Counted from the stretch's first letter, positions 28,803-38,367 are shown. The stretch: DNA of 64,000 nt from Cystobasidiomycetes sp. EMM_F5 (GCA_051047955.1 JBPGPT010000012.1:310001-374000), one strand, 5' to 3'. Notes: a model not told the origin generated them from the letters alone. Translations and numbers: made by a program.

Positions 28803-31800
28803 ATGTCGTCGAGAAATGGCGATGTCAGCGCCAGTATCGCAACGAAGGCAAGCCGTCCAAAGCCTGGACGAACAGCCCGAGACGGCCGACGCGAGAATCT
28901 GCTCAAACGACTGGGGACTTTGCATAGTCTTTCCGTCAACAGTGTAGCATTGCTGGCAGTCGCCTTCATTCTTCTTCTCCATCTCTGCGCTTTGACGCTC
29001 TTTTCTCGTGGATTCCTTCTCAGCCGCACAACACTCGAGAAGCGCAATCTGTGCAATGTCGCATCACGGGACTGCACTTTGACGCCAAAGTTTGACCGAG
29101 CTATCATTCTGCTCATTGACGCTCTGCGTTATGACTTCCTCTTGCCCGCGGATCCGACACTGTCCTCTTTCGACGGGGCACATCATAATCATTTGACGCT
29201 ACCAGGTCAACTAACCGCTCGCTGGCCAGAGCATTCGCTGCTCTTCAAAGGCGTTGCGGATCCGCCTACCACAACCTTGCAGCGCCTAAAAGCTCTGACA
29301 ACAGGAAGTCTCCCTACATTCGTAGATGCAGGTTCAAACTTCGCAGGAAGCGCGGTTGAGGAGGACAATTGGCTCGAGCAAGCGAATAGAGCTGGAAAAC
29401 GTATTGCTTTTATGGGCGACGATACGTGGCTTACCATATTTCCAGAAGCAATCTTTGCACCGAATCTCTCATTCCCCTTTGATTCGTTCAACGTAGAGGA
29501 TCTGGATACTGTGGATCGTGGGGTCAGGAAGCATATTATTCCATTACTAGATGAGCCCGCGGCCGGCTCGTCCTGGGACATCTTGATTGCACACCCGCTT
29601 GGGCTAGATCACGCCGGACACCGATTTGGCGCTTCACACGCAGAGACATCGCGCAAGTTGGACGAGATGAATGCTTTACTGCTCGATGTCGTCGATCGCT
29701 TGGCAACAAAGGATCTGCTCATCGTGCTGGGTGATCATGGCATGGACTCCAATGGCAATCACGGTGGCGACAGTCCCGACGAAACCGATGCAGGCTTATG
29801 GATCTACAGCAAGACTGCACTGACTCCCTCTAATGTCCTGGATATACAGCCATTCCGACAGTCGTCTAGCACATTGACGTCATTGCTGGGGCTTGCGCCA
29901 GATGGTTATGCCGAGTTCTTCCAGCATCACGGCACGACCACCCGTAGCGTGTCGCAGATTTCGTTAATCCCAACTTTATGCCTGCTTCTGGGCATTCCAA
30001 TTCCGCTCAATAATTTGGGCACCGTCATACCGGAACTTTTCGTGGAAACTACAACGGCTTCATTGCTTCATCGTGCGGTTCATGGACCTTCAACCAACCA
30101 ACTCCTTCAAGCTATGCGTATTAACGCGATGCAAATTCGAGGGTATATTGAGGAGTATACGTCGAGCAAAACTGGCTCGGATCTAGCTCCTTTCGCAGCT
30201 AGCTTGCAAGACGCTTATCAAGCTGCGTCAGCTGAAGGCACGGAGGCTGCTGAATTCGTCGCACTGCGCCATTTCACATTCTCCGTATTGCGAGTGACGC
30301 GAGGCATATGGGCAAGGTTCGACGCTAAACTCATGCTTGCCGGCGTGGTCGTGTTGTTTGGGTCGCTCATCGCAATTTGGCGCTTCTATTGTCTGAGCCG
30401 GCAGCCAGGGCCTCTTTACCGGAAGGGCGTCCTTCGCGCAGCCTTGGCTCAAGGTACTTCGGGCGCAGTTATTGGCCTGACATGCGGAGTACTAGCTCTG
30501 TTACTCTCGAGAGCATTGTCGACCCAGGCTAATCTGTCTAGCAACATTGTGATTTTCGGTACGAGCATCGGTGGTCTGGCAGGTATCCTATCATATCGCA
30601 AAGATGCAGAATTGGAGTCACCCGCGACAACCATATCCACGTCTGATTACCTCGCCGTAGCTCAAATTCTCCTCCATAGCATTATGTTTGCGTCGAATTC
30701 GTATACGATGTGGGAGGATAGGGTCGTACTATACCTCGTGCAGATGACCTCTCTGGTCCTCGTTATTCAGGGGCACCGCGCATACATACCGCTGTTACGA
30801 TTGCGCATCATTCGCTTCGCGGTCCTTTCGATGATGCTGCATCGCTTCATTGCGTTCTCTACCATATGTCGGGAAGAGCAACATCCATACTGCAGTGCGA
30901 CTTTTTATGGAAGGAGCGGTGTCAGCACGGCTTCAGGGTCAGCATTCGGCCTTGCAATTCTCGCTGCCATCTTCCTTCCCACCATCACCGCCCGCTTCCT
31001 CGATATTGCCAAATCTCGTCAGGGATGGGCGTCCTTCATCCTGAGGTACAGCTTCAGATCGCTGCTACTTGCTGGTGTGCTGTACTGGATAGCGGAATAC
31101 TTCGAACATGAGGGGACACCTTCCCAAGTGCGCCTGTTGTCAACATTCCGAACCACTTTGGCGAGGTCGCAATTGCTATGCTGTCTACTACTGGGGAGCA
31201 CGTTCTGGGCTACTTCACCGGTATGCGTATCTGTCATAGAGCAGACATTCGAAAAGGAGGACGGGCAAACCTCGACCAAAGTATCAGTCATCGGATTCGC
31301 GAACGCCGCCGGAGCCTCATATCTCCTCGTGTTCATCGCTCTATTCAGTGGTATATTCCTACTCGCTCAACCTGTCGGTCAGTTTATCTACGCCATCGGC
31401 CTCGTTGCTCTGCTTTCTTTTCTCGAAGCCAATGACAGCAACCGCGATGCAGAATTGCTCCTCTCGCGAGCGCAAGGCAAGATGCCTCCGCTTGAAGTTG
31501 AAGGTGTCTCAGTGCGCCCAGATGTGCCGCCGTCGTTGATGAGCATATGTTATTTGGTACTCTGGGGTTTCAACATTTTTTTTGCGACGGGCCATCAAGC
31601 TGTATTGTCGTCTATACAGTGGAAAGCAGCCTTTATCGGATTTCCCGTACTCACTTATCCCTTTTCTCCGATATTGGTAATCCTCAATACTTTAGGTCCG
31701 TTCATACTGTCTGCTGCAAGCGTGCCGCTACTCGTCTTTTGGAATACATCGCCCACCATGAAGAACGGACCTTCCATGCCAGTATTGACCAATATACTCA

Positions 31801-32033
31801 AGGCATCCTTTGGCTTCATGTTTTATCACACATCGACGACGTTGGCAACTGCTGCATTTGCTGCTCACCTCCGCCGGCATCTTATGGTATGGAAGGTATT
31901 TGCTCCGCGTTTCATGTTGTCTGCGATCACTCTGCTCGCGGTAGACGCTACTCTGCTTTTATTTGCCGTAGGATGGGGCACTTTGGGGACGTTGAGAAAG
32001 CTCAAAACGACATTTGGTTCGGCCTGGTGCTGA
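28803..32033 (+). CDS. GPI13: GPI ethanolamine phosphate transferase 3 (PIG-O), single uninterrupted ORF
   Basis: LFSRGFLLSR, IDALRYDF, ADPPTTTLQRLKALTTGSLPTFVDAGSNF, GLDHAGH, GDHGMD, FFATGHQ, HLRRHLMVWKVFAPRF. Confidence 0.96.
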   Translation: MSSRNGDVSASIATKASRPKPGRTARDGRRENLLKRLGTLHSLSVNSVALLAVAFILLLHLCALTLFSRGFLLSRTTLEKRNLCNVASRDCTLTPKFDRAIILLIDALRYDFLLPADPTLSSFDGAHHNHLTLPGQLTARWPEHSLLFKGVADPPTTTLQRLKALTTGSLPTFVDAGSNFAGSAVEEDNWLEQANRAGKRIAFMGDDTWLTIFPEAIFAPNLSFPFDSFNVEDLDTVDRGVRKHIIPLLDEPAAGSSWDILIAHPLGLDHAGHRFGASHAETSRKLDEMNALLLDVVDRLATKDLLIVLGDHGMDSNGNHGGDSPDETDAGLWIYSKTALTPSNVLDIQPFRQSSSTLTSLLGLAPDGYAEFFQHHGTTTRSVSQISLIPTLCLLLGIPIPLNNLGTVIPELFVETTTASLLHRAVHGPSTNQLLQAMRINAMQIRGYIEEYTSSKTGSDLAPFAASLQDAYQAASAEGTEAAEFVALRHFTFSVLRVTRGIWARFDAKLMLAGVVVLFGSLIAIWRFYCLSRQPGPLYRKGVLRAALAQGTSGAVIGLTCGVLALLLSRALSTQANLSSNIVIFGTSIGGLAGILSYRKDAELESPATTISTSDYLAVAQILLHSIMFASNSYTMWEDRVVLYLVQMTSLVLVIQGHRAYIPLLRLRIIRFAVLSMMLHRFIAFSTICREEQHPYCSATFYGRSGVSTASGSAFGLAILAAIFLPTITARFLDIAKSRQGWASFILRYSFRSLLLAGVLYWIAEYFEHEGTPSQVRLLSTFRTTLARSQLLCCLLLGSTFWATSPVCVSVIEQTFEKEDGQTSTKVSVIGFANAAGASYLLVFIALFSGIFLLAQPVGQFIYAIGLVALLSFLEANDSNRDAELLLSRAQGKMPPLEVEGVSVRPDVPPSLMSICYLVLWGFNIFFATGHQAVLSSIQWKAAFIGFPVLTYPFSPILVILNTLGPFILSAASVPLLVFWNTSPTMKNGPSMPVLTNILKASFGFMFYHTSTTLATAAFAAHLRRHLMVWKVFAPRFMLSAITLLAVDATLLLFAVGWGTLGTLRKLKTTFGSAWC

Positions 32034-32275: not shown

Positions 32276-32354
32276 GACGAGCTAGTGGGGTCTGCCAAAG
32301 GTCTGCTCCGGACCCTACCGGACCCTCCCGTGACCCTCGCCTGGGCTCACCGCT
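32276..32354 (+). repeat. Left terminal inverted repeat (79 bp)
   Basis: GACGAGCTAGTGGGGTCTGCCAAAGGTCTGCTCCGGACCCTACCGGACCCTCCCGTGACCCTCGCCTGGGCTCACCGCT; its reverse complement matches 37479-37557 with 2 mismatches. Confidence 0.97.
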
Positions 32355-32356
32355 CT

Positions 32357-33286
32357 CTAGCTAACATTTGCGAAGTTTCCTTGGGCAGCCTTGATGGCTT
32401 TGTTAACTCTTCGCTTGAAACGCAACTAGTTTGAATGGTGGGTGATGTAGGCGGCGTACACGCATCACTAGATAATGGTCTAGCTGCACACCGTTTCGCT
32501 TTACGTGGTGAGATAGCATTTACAACGATTTGCTTCTGTGTGATCTGGTGGACTTGATGTTCGGAATTCGAGCACGTGAAACTTTTCTCCGTACCAGCCT
32601 AATTTCATGCGGACTTCCTTCGCGCTTGATTGTCCTGTTTTTAACATAATCTGCACTTCCCTCTCGTTCTTTGCCTTTCCCCTTGACCCGCACAGTTCGC
32701 AAACCTTCGGCCGAAGCCTGCACTGCCTCAGGCGTTGTTTTAGCTACAGGCGCATTGAGTGAACCAAAGGGCACGAGCGCTTTGGCGCGTGCAATTCTTT
32801 CAGACGGATCCATATCTTGGGCGCAGAGCGTACTGTATAGCTTCTGAATAAGATCCACGGCGTAAGGGAATGGCTGGTTTTCGTGAAATTCCGGCAGCTC
32901 TTCAAACAGCTCCAGTGCTAGCTTCAGCTAAATCCAACTAATTAGATAGCTATTCATCGAGATCCGACTCCGCTTACATCGGCTGAGGCAGACGAAGGTG
33001 CATCGAGATTTAACCAGCAGAATGCCGCGAGTATGTACGCCTCACAATTTGCCACCGCTCCGCTGTCGTCCCTGATGTTATGGTACACCCAAGCTACAGC
33101 TCCAGCGTAATCACCTTCCTTCATAGTGTTCATTATCTCAGCGTTGTCGACGGACTGCTGGTAGTATTCCAAAATGAAGTTGCGACCCCTGTTATGCAAC
33201 GCAATTGAGCAGGTGCATCAGCAGCAAACGTGCAGCATGCATACGTACAATTCTACCAACGCTCTCATCTCGCTTGTGGTCGCCAT
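32357..33286 (-). CDS. Orphan protein A of the TIR cassette (~250 aa; helical N-terminal half, basic/disordered C-terminal half)
   Basis: Three canonical GT-AG introns give one open frame MATTSEMRALVEL|GRNFILEYY...SASAD|LKLALELFEELP...HEIRL|KQIVVNAISPRKAKR...GNFANVS*. Confidence 0.7.
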
Positions 33287-33443
33287 AAGAGCCGTCACCA
33301 AGATACTAATAACGCAGGAATTACTCTAAGAACAAGATCAATTGGGCTCGAGCGTGACTCACGGGGTCACTCACGGGTCCGTTCAACGAGCCTGAACATT
33401 CTCGACCTCCTGACTGCGACTGCTAAGCCATCAAACCGAGAAT

Positions 33444-36400
33444 ATGTCAATCGCTAACGAAAAGATGGGTCATTCTGCGGTTGTGGAGACAGCAGCCGAG
33501 ATTACACCAGATCTGATGATTCCAGAGGATCTGCTGGCGAATCTGGCCAAATTGAAACGTGAAATTGTCACCAATACAGACTTGGCGAGTTTCTCTGTCG
33601 ATTTCTGGACTCTTTGCCTGGCGGCTGCTCGTCAGATCCACACTATCGCAGATCAGCTCCCTGCAGCAGGCTTGAAAGGGGCTGCAAAAAAGCGCACAGG
33701 CCATCCGTCAAATATTTCGAAATGGCTATGGGAATCACGAGAAGGCCGGTCTCTTAATCCTGATGCTCTGGTTACAGGAATGGGAATTCTACATTCTTTC
33801 ATTGAAGAGCATCGAGTCAGCGTTCTGGAACATCGAAACGCTCCCTCAACAACACCAGAAACCGACTATCCTTTTTTGTGGCCAAATTATGATGACATCG
33901 TCGATGTCGTCGCCTACGTGCCACAGTCGCAGCTACTACGAATCGGGCTCAAAGCGCATGGCTCTCGGAAAGCTACAGTCAGAGCGGCTAGCTTAATTAG
34001 CTGGAGCGCTCTGGACATACCAGCTACGCCCGGCAACTCAGAACACGCGTTCACAAAAGACGAGATCATGACACAACCGAATCTTGCAAAGCTATTAAAC
34101 GCTTACATACGGGAGCGTCAGACGGGCGGCGGATTTGAGAAGGAGCTCAAGCGGATCAGGGCCGTCATGGTACCGAAGTACACCAGCAGAGAGCATACTC
34201 ATGCAATCACATATGTTAACATTCCTGGTAAATCTCTTAATTCTGGCCAATATTGGTCTTTAAAGTATCGCAAGCTTGTTTTCCAATTGATGTGCCAAAG
34301 AGTGACTAAAGCTACAGGTGATTGCTATCTCCAACATGGCGCGAGCATACTGAACCAGCAGTATTACAGGAGTGCTTGAAGACCTCGCGCCCTCGCTTCG
34401 ACCAGGACAGCTTCCATTCTCCATTTGGCTCAGACAAGAAGATTCTGAAATGCCTAAACCCAGTGAGACCGAGGAGACATTCATCAGAACGTGGGCCAGC
34501 AGTGTGCTCTCCATCATCGATGCAGGCTTGGCGATGGAGAAAACGAGTGGGCGTTTTCTGACATATACATGAAGTTGTCTCATATTGATGTTCGTGACAC
34601 AGAAACTGAGATCAAAGAAGTAGTGACTGCGTATTCCAATACTGCTAGTCGCGTTCAAAATCTAGGTAAGAGAGAGATACGGAAGTCCGACGTATGATGC
34701 GCTCATTTTTGTTTGACAGCGCTGTCGAGCCATGAAAGAGATCTACAATTTTGGTCATCCCAGGACGGGGTACGTCAATGCAAGCTCTGGATAGACCGCC
34801 CGGATCTACGCGTCTGCATCTACTTTTCCATACCAATGCGGATTCATCAGGACCGAGCGCAATCTTTGTGGCAAGCTCTCAAACGGCAGTCGCAGAATCT
34901 ATGGTTGAACGGTACAATGTTCGCCCTGATAATCGATCTTATAAGTATGTCAGCAGGGAACATAATATGCAAACTAGCGGAAATACGCGATTCTGTATGC
35001 GTGGATGATCTCAACGAAGACGATACGTTCGATGACACTGAGCATACGCATGAATCAACGGAAGACAAGGTGGGTCAAGTAGTGTCACCAGATACAAATA
35101 CCAATTCCGGGTTGTCGACAGGCCGCTTGTGCAATTATGTTGCGGTGTCACCTATGTGATCTGCCCTTTGAATGCAGGCTTTCGCCTTGGCACAAGAAAA
35201 CGTTATGTCCTACGCATAATGTGGGTAATGATTATCATTCGTTTCACATCCAGCTGATGTATCAGCAGTCGATGTATGTTGGCCAACACGTACAGGGCCG
35301 CACGCCGCTGTTCCAGTCAATTGCAGACAATGCCGACATTCCAAACCGCGGTGCTGCCGAAGTCTCCGATTTCATGCAAACTGCAGTCACGTCGCTCAGA
35401 GCAGAATGTAGGCTGTGGTGTATCTGCCTCCGAATCAATGGATCAAAAGGTTTCAATCGAGCAATACTAAAACTGACAGATACCATCCGGCAATACAATC
35501 TGGGTGTACCCGACGGATGGAACCCTGTACTGACCTCGACCCGCGAACAGAATGGGATAGACAAGCGGATTTGGACCTACCGCCTACTCCAAGTCGTTGA
35601 TATTGATTTTGACATGGATGAGGGCGTCATGGACATGTGGCTAGCGAATGGGATTGAGGTACAAAAAATACAGGCTTATAGAAGCCGGTTTCATCGCGTA
35701 GTATCATATGGTAACCAAGTTTGCATGAGCTCGACCGGAGGAAATAACTGATGCCGTCTCACAGACCACCTCGCCGTTCCCAAGCCCCTCATTGCTTCGC
35801 TCGATCAACATCGGGTTTTCTTTGCGAATAGAATCTGTTTACGCACAGGTCATACGCAAGATAATGTTGACGTAGTGCCTCGCCACATCAACTATTTAAA
35901 GCACACATACCCACCGGAGTGGGTGAGCTTTGCGGCCATGGAGCGCTTCAAGTTCTGTATTTTGGCTGGTCTTCTCACCACTCTCGATGCGCAGAAGCTG
36001 GAAGCAGATGCAACGGCTTTAATTTCAGCCTTTCACAAGGTATCAGCCCGGAACTTCTGCGTATAATCATCATACTAATCTTAGGATATCAGCTTTCCTT
36101 GCTTGTGCCTAATACTAGGCAGGGCCGTTCTACCGCGATTGGAAACAAATCGCTACGAGAAGCTGTATACGCCGCCTATGGACCCATCATTGAGTTTGGT
36201 CGACAAATTGGGCATGAAGATGAGGCCTATGCGTTCTACGAAAGTACTGCCGACCGGCAGCCACAACAAGTGCAGATCAGTGGCACAGTAGAGCCTGCAA
36301 AACCGCTTGTCGGTTTGCGAGAACTTTGTCAGTGGCGGGCCGAAGATTATGGCGACCAGCTTTATAGGTCCGGTACAGCCAGTCAAGCCGCCAAATTTCT

Positions 36401-37242
36401 GAGCTCTCTTGAAGGGACTTTGAAAGACTTGCAGAGTGGTATGTAACGCTACAACCGACCGATCAGTGGAGTGTGAATTTGACTGCGATCTGTTAGATCT
36501 TACTTCGATGGAAAATGGTGAATTGTCACTGGTCGGCGTTCATGTAAGCCACAAAGCATAGCAAATCGAACCAACTAATTCTGGAGTGGGACAGAGCCTG
36601 ATTTCTCAAGAGTTTGTCCTTTTCAAATGGTGGCACTATTTCTTGCTACTCGAATGGTGTGATGGGTGAATCATTGTTACGCTCGATAGCGAAAAACACT
36701 GACTTTCATTGCTGGTCAGATACGGCTCGTGTATGATTGCGTTTGTGTTCGTTGCGTTTTGGGTGGTCAACTGGACTCAGCTCATCAAATGCCGAGGCCG
36801 TTGTCCGCTTTTTGGTTTCCGTTTGAGTGCGCGCCGCAAAGATCTCACAGCAATGGTAGACGCTCACCGCGTGCACGGACTGTCAATGGCTTATTCCATT
36901 CAGCAATTTCCGGATGTGAAGTCGCTGGCAGATCTCCGTTTGGATCTCGGCAATTTGTGTGTACAATCCAGGACCGCCAACTACTGGCTGCACAACTTTG
37001 CTTATGAAGATGTTCGGCTTGCCGATGCTCAGCTTCTTCGCATTGGCCATGAAAGATTCCGGTCAATGTATCCTAGTCTTTACTCAATCCTGGCTGATAG
37101 CAAAACTTTGGAAGATCGGCTTGCTCGGCTCTCCTGTGAATCAATTGAAGGCTTTGAAGATGGGCCATACAATCGGTACTGGGATTTGGAGCCGGATCAC
37201 ATACTGCACCCGTCGCAAGGCAATACGCATGTGACGATGTAA
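33444..37242 (+). CDS. Orphan protein B of the TIR cassette (roughly 1,100 aa if continuous); putative HNH-like (beta-beta-alpha-metal) nuclease
   Basis: A chain of exons joined by ~50-nt GT-AG introns; CHLC..CPTH motif (35146-35217); SLD...GHTQDNVDVVPRHINYLKH (35797-35904); second motif AHRVHG...NLCVQSRTANY. The junction at 34490-34572 is ambiguous. Confidence 0.6.
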
Positions 37243-37478
37243 AAGCTCGTCAAGTGGCTGTCTCCGCATCGTTTCCAGAGCTGTAGCAGTCATCATCGTT
37301 ACGCTTCAACAACAGTCTGTATACCACACTAAGCAAGTATGTTGTAAATCCACCCTGCGGTAAATGAAAGATGGAACTGGAATCTTAACGATAACATACG
37401 CCTATTAGCCATTTGACGACCTGAACAGCGCGGTTGGCCCTTCAAACAAGCCAAGTTGAATGAGTGACAGCAAAGCAC

Positions 37479-37557
37479 AGCGGTGACCCCCGGCGAGGGT
37501 CACGGGAGGGTCCGGTAGGGTCCGGAGCAGACCTTTGGCAGACCCCACTAGCTCGTC
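37479..37557 (-). repeat. Right terminal inverted repeat (79 bp)
   Basis: AGCGGTGACCCCCGGCGAGGGTCACGGGAGGGTCCGGTAGGGTCCGGAGCAGACCTTTGGCAGACCCCACTAGCTCGTC; the outer 66 bp match the left repeat perfectly. Confidence 0.97.
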
Positions 37558-37949
37558 AAGGAATCGATTGGGAGGTCCATTGGCGATATAATGTGCGCAC
37601 ATCAGTAAATCTGAATGTAATTATATAGTGTATAGATTCCTAATGCGGTATCTCCGAAATTGCTTCGTTGGTGTAGGTGAGGAATTGAGAAATCCACTCG
37701 CTTGTGACAACTCTGACACAATTAGCAGTGGTTGTAAGTGCACGGCAGATTCGTTCAGTGCCAGATCTGACCAGATATTAGGCATTTTCGCTTTGGGTGC
37801 GAGAGGTGATCGGTTCAATCCCGGTACGAGGCCATATCTTTTGCCGCGTGCAGGCAGAGCGTGTACGGGTTCATCATACGCGTATTCAGCACTATCGCGA
37901 TACCACCGTGCCTGACTGAGCGCCCCTTTGCAGCCTGACAACCGCAACT

Positions 37950-38367
37950 ATGGCAGAAACGGTAACGAGACGCATATCCAAAGCACTGTGACGAGTCTGA
38001 TGAGTCTGCAGTCGCATACATATGCATTCGAGGTCGCAATGACTTGTGGAGGATGTTCGGGCGCCGTGCAACGCGTCTTGGACAAAATGGAAGGTGAACA
38101 GCTGCTCAGACAGGATAGCAACCGTTTTAGAATCTGACATTGTCGCATACCAGGTATCAACGTCCAAGAAGTCAAATGGGAGACTAAGAGTGTCATTGTC
38201 GTCGCTCCAAATGGCACCCCGGACTTTGACACTGTTCGAGAAAAGATAGCCAAGACTCAGGTATAGACCTCCCTCCTAATCTACAGACCGTCGCTGAGCG
38301 ATGTGCACAGAAAAAGGTGATACGGGGCACTGACAACGGGATCGAGGTTTACAAGGCAGACGCATAG
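37950..38367 (+). CDS. ATX1: Copper chaperone Atx1 (single HMA domain), 4 exons
   Basis: Spliced MAET|SHTYAFEVAMTCGGCSGAVQRVLDKME|GINVQEVKWETKSVIV...VREKIAKTQ|KKVIRG...; MTCGGC motif and KT.K loop. Confidence 0.92.

Follow-up and report, generated by a model that had tools for sequence, protein, structure and literature searches.

A candidate unclassified TIR element between GPI13 and ATX1 in Cystobasidiomycetes sp. EMM_F5

When two genes lie between near-perfect inverted repeats, did they arrive together as a mobile element, or are they resident genes whose borders have come to resemble each other? The question is raised by a 5,282-bp unit (positions 32276–37557) in a 64,000-nt stretch of DNA from Cystobasidiomycetes sp. 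EMM_F5, the whole of which is called the window here. A preliminary description saw in this unit a recently active selfish element of undescribed type, a non-autonomous cargo carrier, or an invertible cassette. Our analysis leads to a more guarded answer: the unit looks like a mobile element, but a resident gene pair is nearly as likely.

Inverted-repeat arms and their surroundings

The unit consists of two genes enclosed by inverted-repeat arms of 79 nt: the left arm (32276–32354, plus strand) and the right arm (37479–37557, minus strand), with 5124 nt between them. The arms are complementary at 77 of 79 positions (97%). Since the only two mismatches sit at arm positions 67 and 71, the outer 66 nt (32276–32341 in the left arm) are identical to the reverse complement of the right arm. 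Coordinates and identity thus agree with those first described. The pair is the sole direct or inverted repeat of at least 35 nt within the window, and the outer 26-mer of the arm is present in the window only at the two arms (two or more matches in 0 of 100 shuffles).

Each arm is itself built from short phased repeats. The left arm contains GGTCTGC at arm positions 14 and 25, GGACCCT at 35 and 45, and the further 7-mer GTGACCCT at 55/56, a spacing of 10–11 nt; the right arm carries the same 7-mers on the opposite strand. Tandem Repeats Finder (TRF) reports a period of 10 in both arms, with 3.0 copies at 32308–32338 and 3.4 copies at 37490–37525. The control for the phased motif used a motif picked only after the arms had been inspected. 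A promoter site at 33364–33380 also resembles part of the arms, by a pattern likewise chosen after inspection (three matches, a number reached in 0 of 100 shuffles). In an unbiased alignment test this site was not among the six best hits, and the best non-self score, 26, was reached in 19 of 40 shuffles; we therefore rejected the resemblance as evidence. Folding of the arm RNA is not unusual (z 0.70).

The flanking genes are those named in the preliminary description. To the left lies a PIGO/GPI13-like ORF (28803–32033, with its stop at 32033); to the right lies an HMA (ATX1-like) ORF near 37990, followed by Vps54. Without the unit, the GPI13 stop and the ATX1-like ORF would be about 675 nt apart. 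The unit has a GC content of 49.1%, and none of the 96 other 5.28-kb windows is as low (mean 51.6, sd 0.9, minimum 50.1). By 4-mer signature it is no outlier: 5 of the 96 lie further away. The 64-kb window contains no tRNA genes, and an Rfam search matched no family. A scan for bacterial-type promoters and terminators, irrelevant to a eukaryote, gave the same counts as shuffles.

At its boundaries the unit is preceded by GGTACTTGCA on the left and followed by AAGGAATCGA on the right. Its two flanks share no perfect direct repeat of at least 3 nt, even with the boundaries shifted by −6 to +6. A target-site duplication should still be visible, because the arms are only 2.5% diverged. The window shows one copy, and the protein collections contain one protein cluster for the EMM_F5 genome. 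An independent k-mer assembly bears on the repeats themselves: it places the cassette ORFs on a contig of 5,210 nt (the 5,150 nt between the perfect parts of the repeats plus 2 × 30 nt) and the neighbouring genes on two others, of 46,627 and 134,400 nt. It follows that the repeat pair is genuine and does not belong to a dense family of dispersed repeats. The assembly fits either orientation of the 5,210-nt contig.

Two divergent genes and their relatives

Exactly two divergent, intron-containing genes had been noted inside the repeats, and so it proved: both are intact, spliced, and matched to public proteins. They run outward from a shared divergent promoter and 5' region that occupies 33287–33464, between the two start codons.

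The small gene, EMMF5_003163 (32520–33286, minus strand, stop included), encodes a hypothetical protein of 218 aa (P0013). Its three exons (33286–33249, 33188–32978, and 32927–32520) are separated by GT-AG introns of 60 and 50 nt and, joined from the window, match the public protein letter for letter. The codon-bias score is 0.17–0.20 bits per codon in frame. Among 23 candidates in the protein collections, the last exon matched its own public record only. Modelling predicts that the first 135 aa or so of P0013 are helical; its C-terminal tail is strongly basic. A search of the ESM Atlas returned sub-threshold TPR-like leads alone (0.88–0.89), and Pfam found neither a Myb/SANT domain nor any other match at E up to 1–5.

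The large gene, EMMF5_003164 (33465–37242, plus strand), encodes a hypothetical protein of 944 aa (P0006). It has nine annotated exons: 33465–34317, 34370–34546, 34603–34665, 34720–35069, 35296–35710, 35765–36039, 36123–36438, 36497–36543, and 36904–37242. The introns measure 52, 56, 54, 226, 54, 83, 58, and 360 nt, and the joined exons again equal the public protein letter for letter. ATG codons occur at 33444 and 33465; the annotation starts at the second. An alternative model from 33444 stays open for 1094 aa with short introns only (35070–35121, 36544–36594, and 36666–36719). Codon bias is 0.10–0.21 bits per codon in all seven of the annotated exons tested, and about 0 in the disputed segments. 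Both cassette genes are host-like in codon bias and in intron sizes. They are not paralogues: the best BLASTP E value between P0006 and P0013 is 1.4, so the proteins are unrelated.

Only one part of the large gene has detectable relatives, the N-terminal domain of about 250 aa encoded by exon 1 (33444–34317, plus strand). Four clusters among 1,835,955,588 representatives match it, with E values from 2.5e-17 to 8.3e-08 and identities of 25–31%. These are unnamed ORFs of 280–347 aa, and they look like the first exons of eukaryotic genes, because all four end where exon 1 ends. The invariant positions of the domain are L, W, R, F, A, P, Y, P, L, W, P, and L; none of them is an acidic, His, or Cys residue. 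When all 944 aa were searched, 8000 scored candidates of 519–1652 aa yielded no hit, and the C-terminal exon likewise had none among 270 candidates in a search limited to proteins of 304–2000 aa. The ESM Atlas gave no usable hit for P0006. In the collections searched, no sequenced fungus has a named homologue of either cassette gene.

Two of the relatives, P0004 and P0005, have longest contigs of 5,230 and 5,341 nt, which puts them in the size class of the unit. The match in size is a lead only. Candidate stretches of the relatives' DNA were confirmed in 0 of 126 and 0 of 64 cases in JGI metagenomes, in 0 of 8 and 0 of 16 cases in IMG/VR, and in 0 of 31 cases in one search of prokaryote genomes. 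A second prokaryote search confirmed 1 of 68, a match of a Clostridia MAG to P0004 residues 1–67 that is of low complexity and was judged spurious. Phage and plasmid records gave no match.

A mobility enzyme and the known elements

Does either protein resemble an enzyme that moves DNA? Searches of Pfam and NCBIfam with both proteins, at E up to 1–10, found no transposase, integrase, tyrosine or serine recombinase, Rep, helicase, polymerase, or TnpB/RuvC family, and sequence and profile searches of the PDB returned nothing below E 0.6. The absence of DDE/RNase H, tyrosine-recombinase, Rep/helicase, and polB motifs, first noted from the sequence alone, thus extends to Pfam at E up to 1–10. To our knowledge, the Sola, Zator, Kolobok, Novosib, and Dada superfamilies are absent from Pfam and lie outside this negative result. 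The structure predictions that had been recommended for both proteins were run with AlphaFold2 in single-sequence mode, and the models are unusable: pLDDT is 45.4 for P0013 and 34.4 for P0006, too low to judge whether P0006, which has no Pfam, NCBIfam, or PDB-sequence match, folds as a DDE/RNase H-like enzyme. Towards its C-terminus P0006 also contains a "GH...Y" string that loosely resembles box II of tyrosine recombinases, with no HxxR upstream.

Two kinds of element can be set aside on this evidence. A Fanzor/TnpB-carrying element was rejected: there is no OrfB/TnpB match in Pfam or NCBIfam, even when the Cys/His-rich alternative exon 35122–35295 is included; there is no Rfam match; and the 3' region of the large gene (37243–37557), where a structured guide RNA would be expected, folds no better than shuffles (z 0.09), and that of the small gene shows no unusual folding either (z −0.86). 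A Polinton/Maverick or an integrated linear plasmid was likewise rejected: Pfam finds no polB, integrase, or terminal-protein families, and there are no relatives in IMG/VR, phages, or plasmids.

Other elements share part of the anatomy. Cryptons are tyrosine-recombinase DNA transposons first found in fungi, basidiomycete yeasts included; they span a few kb, carry an intron-containing gene for a large protein, make no staggered-cut target-site duplication, and keep a low copy number. The unit is like them in size, in its intron-containing large-protein gene, in lacking such a duplication, and, as far as the window shows, in its low copy number. However, Cryptons are not known to carry long TIRs, which the unit has, and neither the whole large protein nor its single exons gave a Phage_integrase-type Pfam match at E up to 10. 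The hAT, Mutator, and CACTA superfamilies have long ends in which the transposase binds several short repeated motifs, and these subterminal repeats are comparable to the phased 7-mers of the unit. Their target-site duplications measure 8, 9–11, and 2–3 bp, respectively, whereas the unit has none, and their Pfam transposase domains are unmatched in it. Spy elements, which are PIF-like, reportedly insert without target-site duplication, and would in that respect, and in being TIR-bounded, resemble the unit.

Spy has a single DDE transposase ORF, according to PMC4482050, whereas the unit has no DDE match and contains two ORFs. Closer in layout is the PHIS superfamily (PIF/Harbinger, ISL2EU, Pangu, and Nuwa): TIR-bounded, with two ORFs, one large and one small and accessory. 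In the same paper, the second ORF of Pangu is described as having no known motif, the Pangu TIRs as 11–40 bp, and PHIS elements as making short target-site duplications. In contrast, the unit has TIRs of 79 bp, no target-site duplication, and an accessory protein without a Myb/SANT domain; PHIS elements encode a DDE transposase, and Pfam finds no DDE_Tnp_4/Plant_tran-type domain in the unit at E up to 1–5. Measured against class II TIR transposons in general, the unit has the terminal inverted repeats but not the target-site duplication.

Insertion or resident gene pair

The repeats bound the unit exactly, and both genes are intact, spliced, and directed outward from one central promoter; the unit therefore brings its own expression signals. 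We read it as a self-contained insertion of the mobile-element type, a candidate unclassified TIR element present as a single copy in the GPI13–ATX1 intergenic region, and give this reading a probability of roughly 0.4. Several features point to it: an inverted-repeat pair unique in 64 kb, with its perfect part outermost and exactly two genes inside; the lowest GC of all 5.3-kb windows; phased subrepeats in each arm; two orphan proteins; and, as a lead only, the contig sizes of P0004 and P0005. The exon 1 relatives, at 25–31% identity, show a patchy, fast-diverging spread of the sort typical of selfish genes. Against it stand the missing target-site duplication, the one copy in the window, the lack of a detectable transposase domain or of any invariant acidic, His, or Cys residue in the conserved N-terminal domain, the host-like codon bias and intron sizes, and the unremarkable 4-mer signature. 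The arm-like promoter site is not significant, and the phased-motif control is post hoc. Of the original proposal, then, the selfish-element reading stands as the single best fit, together with the anatomy and the absence of a recognisable transposase. The evidence does not support recent activity: a target-site duplication is missing, the window holds one copy, and the protein collections contain one copy of the large protein plus four distant clusters. The element may be active or recently immobilised.

If the unit is a TIR element, a plausible mechanism can be sketched. The helically phased 7-mers would be putative multi-site binding sites, at which an element-encoded protein pairs the two ends. 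The protein of 944–1094 aa may be the recombinase or transposase, with its conserved N-terminal 250 aa or so as the DNA-recognition part. The 218-aa protein, with its basic tail, could serve as an accessory DNA-binding or nuclear-import factor, by analogy with the second ORF of PIF/Harbinger. Given the missing target-site duplication, insertion would presumably be precise, through a recombinase or blunt insertion of the Spy kind rather than staggered-cut DDE integration. A mobile unit would imply that the large protein is a DNA-rearranging enzyme, invisible to profile libraries, that leaves no target-site duplication. Such an enzyme, from a yeast family that has hardly been sampled, would represent a new class among eukaryotic transposases or recombinases and might be of use as a tool.

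A bolder claim, and to us a doubtful one, is that the unit founds a new superfamily of eukaryotic TIR elements, of which no other member has been described: about 5.2 kb long, with long phased-repeat ends, a central bidirectional promoter, a transposase or recombinase of unrecognised fold, a basic helper protein, no target-site duplication, and an architecture kept in at least three lineages whose N-terminal domains are only 25–31% identical. That the repeat-bounded architecture is shared so widely is hinted at by the three contigs of 5,210, 5,230, and 5,341 nt.

Nearly as likely as a TIR element is a non-mobile, lineage-specific host gene pair, whose arms are either a shared 3'-flank element or the by-product of a rearrangement, kept alike by gene conversion. 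At 165 and 237 nt past their stop codons, the two transcripts would run into the same arm sequence, and, as the genes diverge, the arm has the same orientation relative to the 3' end of either gene. The single copy in the window, the missing target-site duplication and mobility enzyme, and the two intact genes, with multiple introns of host-like length and a host-like codon bias, all suit resident genes. The arms fit less well. A 97%-identical pair of 79-nt non-coding sequences requires a recent origin or active maintenance. The arm RNA and the 3' regions fold without peculiarity. An inverted gene duplication is excluded, since the cassette has no other duplicated part and its two proteins are unrelated. 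The GC content, lower than in any other window, and the lack of a named fungal homologue in the collections searched also speak against a host pair. Should the unit prove non-mobile, it would be a clean case of an inverted-repeat pair maintained around lineage-specific genes, in need of its own explanation.

The two alternatives offered at the outset fare worse than either a TIR element or a host pair. A non-autonomous carrier, in which the two genes are captured passengers and the transposase is encoded elsewhere in the genome, would account for two proteins without a transposase-like domain and for long arms with phased subrepeats. We think it unlikely, however: no target-site duplication and no further arm copy in 64 kb accompany it, and the great length of the flanking k-mer contigs speaks against a numerous family with these ends. 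Inversion of the segment as a switch, by homologous or site-specific recombination between the arms, is more improbable still. A perfect inverted identity of 66 nt can sustain homologous recombination, and the k-mer contig would allow either orientation; but Pfam detects no recombinase family, and an inversion would change no connection between promoter and gene, because the repeats enclose the common promoter together with both 3' ends.

Least credible of all is a basidiomycete HD mating-type locus, in which allelic diversity would explain the absent homologues of a divergent HD1/HD2 pair: two divergent genes, a common promoter of about 150–180 nt, and rapid divergence recall such a locus, but Pfam finds no homeodomain in either protein at E up to 1–5, the six frames of the cassette hold no WFxNxR-type helix-3 motif beyond one loose match without F and N, and sizes of 218 and 944 aa are atypical.

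Repeat arms and locus

The unit at 32276-37557 (5,282 bp) follows a PIGO/GPI13-type open reading frame on its left flank that ends at 32033, and precedes a forward-strand HMA-domain ATX1-like frame (37916-38263, its start also put near 37990; MTCGGC motif; Pfam HMA, E 3.2e-4), with Vps54 beyond on the right flank. Both flanking frames were confirmed, and the placement between GPI13 and ATX1 stands. The ATX1-like frame lies between the consecutive tags EMMF5_003164 and EMMF5_003165, and hence seems to have been overlooked in the public annotation. Excising the unit at the repeat ends would leave GPI13 and ATX1 about 675 nt apart.

The left arm (32276-32354) and the right arm (37479-37557) are 79 nt each, 97% complementary, and spaced 5124 nt apart. 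These positions agree with the preliminary description, as does the perfect outer stretch of 66 nt; the two mismatches fall at arm positions 67 and 71. The pair is the sole direct or inverted repeat of at least 35 nt in the 64-kb window. The outer 26-mer is absent elsewhere in that window, and two matches arose in none of 100 shuffles. Each arm carries 7-mers spaced at 10-11 nt: GGTCTGC twice, GGACCCT twice, then GTGACCCT. TRF gives a period of 10 with 3.0 and 3.4 copies. Spacing of this kind is characteristic of DNA that a protein binds at several sites along one helix face. The chain of four motifs is confined to the arms (maximum of two in 200 shuffles), for a motif picked after arm inspection.

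The EMM_F5 genome, from a leaf-surface yeast lacking a sequenced sister taxon, was assembled with SPAdes from Illumina data only (18.6 Mb; 253 contigs; PMC12697161). In a k-mer assembly made independently for this organism, three cassette ORFs (P0001, P0011, and P0012) share a contig of 5,210 nt. The 5,150 nt separating the perfect arm parts, plus 30 nt per end, add up to exactly this length, as expected of a k=31 graph breaking at an inverted repeat. A 134,400-nt contig carries the right-hand genes, and a 46,627-nt contig carries one left-hand gene. Because the break fits an inverted repeat, the repeat is no assembly artefact. Repeated 31-mers are also scarce around the repeat, which makes it improbable that a high-copy dispersed repeat inserted twice here by chance.

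Two divergent genes

Splicing the annotated exons out of the window DNA yields exactly the large-gene product P0006 (EMMF5_003164, 944 aa), which public records list as a hypothetical protein from Cystobasidiomycetes sp. EMM_F5, and likewise the 218-aa small-gene product P0013 (EMMF5_003163). The arms enclose exactly two divergent, intron-containing genes, whose exon structures match public proteins. All introns are GT-AG, and eight of the ten measure 50-83 nt; the large gene has two long introns, 35070-35295 (226 nt) and 36544-36903 (360 nt). An alternative large-gene model, starting at the first ATG (33444) and replacing the long introns with introns of 51-54 nt, is open for 1094 aa. Its first extra segment (35122-35295) is Cys/His-rich, with a C-x2-C ... 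C-x2-H pattern.

Frame-specific codon bias was trained on 10 long host frames in the window (5,613 codons). Values were 0.10-0.21 bits per codon for all seven annotated large-gene exons tested, and 0.17-0.20 for the small gene; GPI13 (0.18) and Vps54 (0.23) are both within the training set. The three disputed large-gene segments gave -0.04 to 0.04 bits per codon, so that either large-gene model may be right. Together, the exon joining and codon bias show that both genes are real, intact, and host-adapted.

The genes share a divergent promoter of about 150-180 nt, and the 3' end of each faces an arm (stop-to-arm distances, 165 and 237 nt). The promoter contains two tandem TGACTCA/TCACTCA-type heptamers (33350-33380), which resemble Gcn4/AP-1 sites.

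Mobile element or resident gene pair

The most likely reading, with a probability of roughly 0.4, is that the unit is an unclassified TIR-bounded element, present in single copy and a candidate for mobility. A unique repeat pair exactly bounds a self-contained two-gene unit, and the perfect portion of the repeat is the outermost. The GC content of the unit (49.1%) is lower than in all 96 other windows of 5.28 kb; its 4-mer signature is ordinary, 5 of 96 windows being more distant. Two of the four distant relatives of exon 1 (P0004 and P0005) lie on contigs of up to 5,230 and 5,341 nt, matching the 5,210-nt contig here: a striking hint that the repeat-bounded architecture may be conserved in relatives.

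Against mobility, no target-site duplication flanks the arms, even with shifted boundaries; at an arm divergence of just 2.5%, a duplication should still show, had one formed. A single copy was seen in the 64-kb window, no enzyme family was recognised in either protein, and the genes have host-like introns and host-like codon use. An arm-like promoter site was rejected as evidence, lying outside the six best local alignments of arm and window; the best non-self arm alignment (score 26) was reached in 19 of 40 shuffles.

ALTERNATIVES

A close second, tentatively held, is that the unit is a non-mobile, lineage-specific orphan gene pair whose shared 3'-flank element has been maintained. This accounts for the single copy and the absent duplication, but leaves unexplained both the low GC and the 97% identity of a 79-nt non-coding pair. 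The invertible cassette entertained in the preliminary description is unlikely as a switch, because the promoter and both genes sit within the repeats. The divergent layout would suit a basidiomycete HD mating-type pair, yet no homeodomain was found in Pfam or by a WFxNxR-type motif search. Fanzor/TnpB was considered because of the Cys/His-rich alternative exon (35122-35295), and then rejected, as Pfam and NCBIfam gave no such family, the 3' region showed no structured RNA (z 0.09), and Rfam returned no match. Viral, plasmid, or Polinton origin found no support in IMG/VR, phage, and plasmid records.

Of known elements, two-ORF TIR transposons (PHIS superfamily) come closest to the unit in layout. 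Most PHIS groups are described as pairing a DDE transposase with a DNA-binding second ORF, and the Pangu second ORF as having no known motif (PMC4482050). The unit is not a PHIS member, since a DDE match and a short target-site duplication are both absent and its ends are far longer. The absent duplication likens it to Spy and the tyrosine-recombinase Cryptons, neither of which is known to form such duplications. A recombinase domain was not found in its proteins, and Cryptons are not known to have long TIRs.

Protein searches and distant relatives

That no transposase or recombinase is recognisable was borne out by sequence searches. Pfam, queried with whole proteins, with single exons, and at E up to 10, returned no credible family; NCBIfam gave no match, and PDB sequences gave none below E 0.6, N-terminal-domain profile included. 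The ESM Atlas yielded no usable match for the large protein and sub-threshold TPR-like leads only (0.88-0.89) for the small one. AlphaFold2 models made without an alignment (pLDDT 34.4 for P0006 and 45.4 for P0013) were too poor for fold search. No relationship exists between the large and the small protein. The small-gene search found its own record alone among 23 candidates, and no relative was found for the whole large protein among proteins of 519-1652 aa or for its C-terminal exon among those of 304-2000 aa.

Exon 1 (261 aa) was compared by exhaustive phmmer with 1,835,955,588 representatives (E up to 0.001). This retrieved five proteins, none a named fungal protein: the query's own ORF and four others, unnamed and 280-347 aa long (E 2.5e-17 to 8.3e-08; 25-31% identity). 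In the alignment these four stop where exon 1 stops, and so resemble the first exons of related genes that contain introns. The invariant residues comprise hydrophobic and aromatic ones and a single Arg, and none is Asp, Glu, His, or Cys; this pattern is more in keeping with a putative binding domain than with a catalytic site. The sole prokaryote-genome match (L001, 10001-10207, a Clostridia MAG) covers P0004 residues 1-67 at 34% identity, and was judged spurious as low-complexity, Ser/Ala-rich sequence. One distant relative exists as five variants (P0003 and P0007-P0010) with 94-95% identity on separate contigs (2,044-8,291 nt); these may represent different strains or multiple copies within a single genome.
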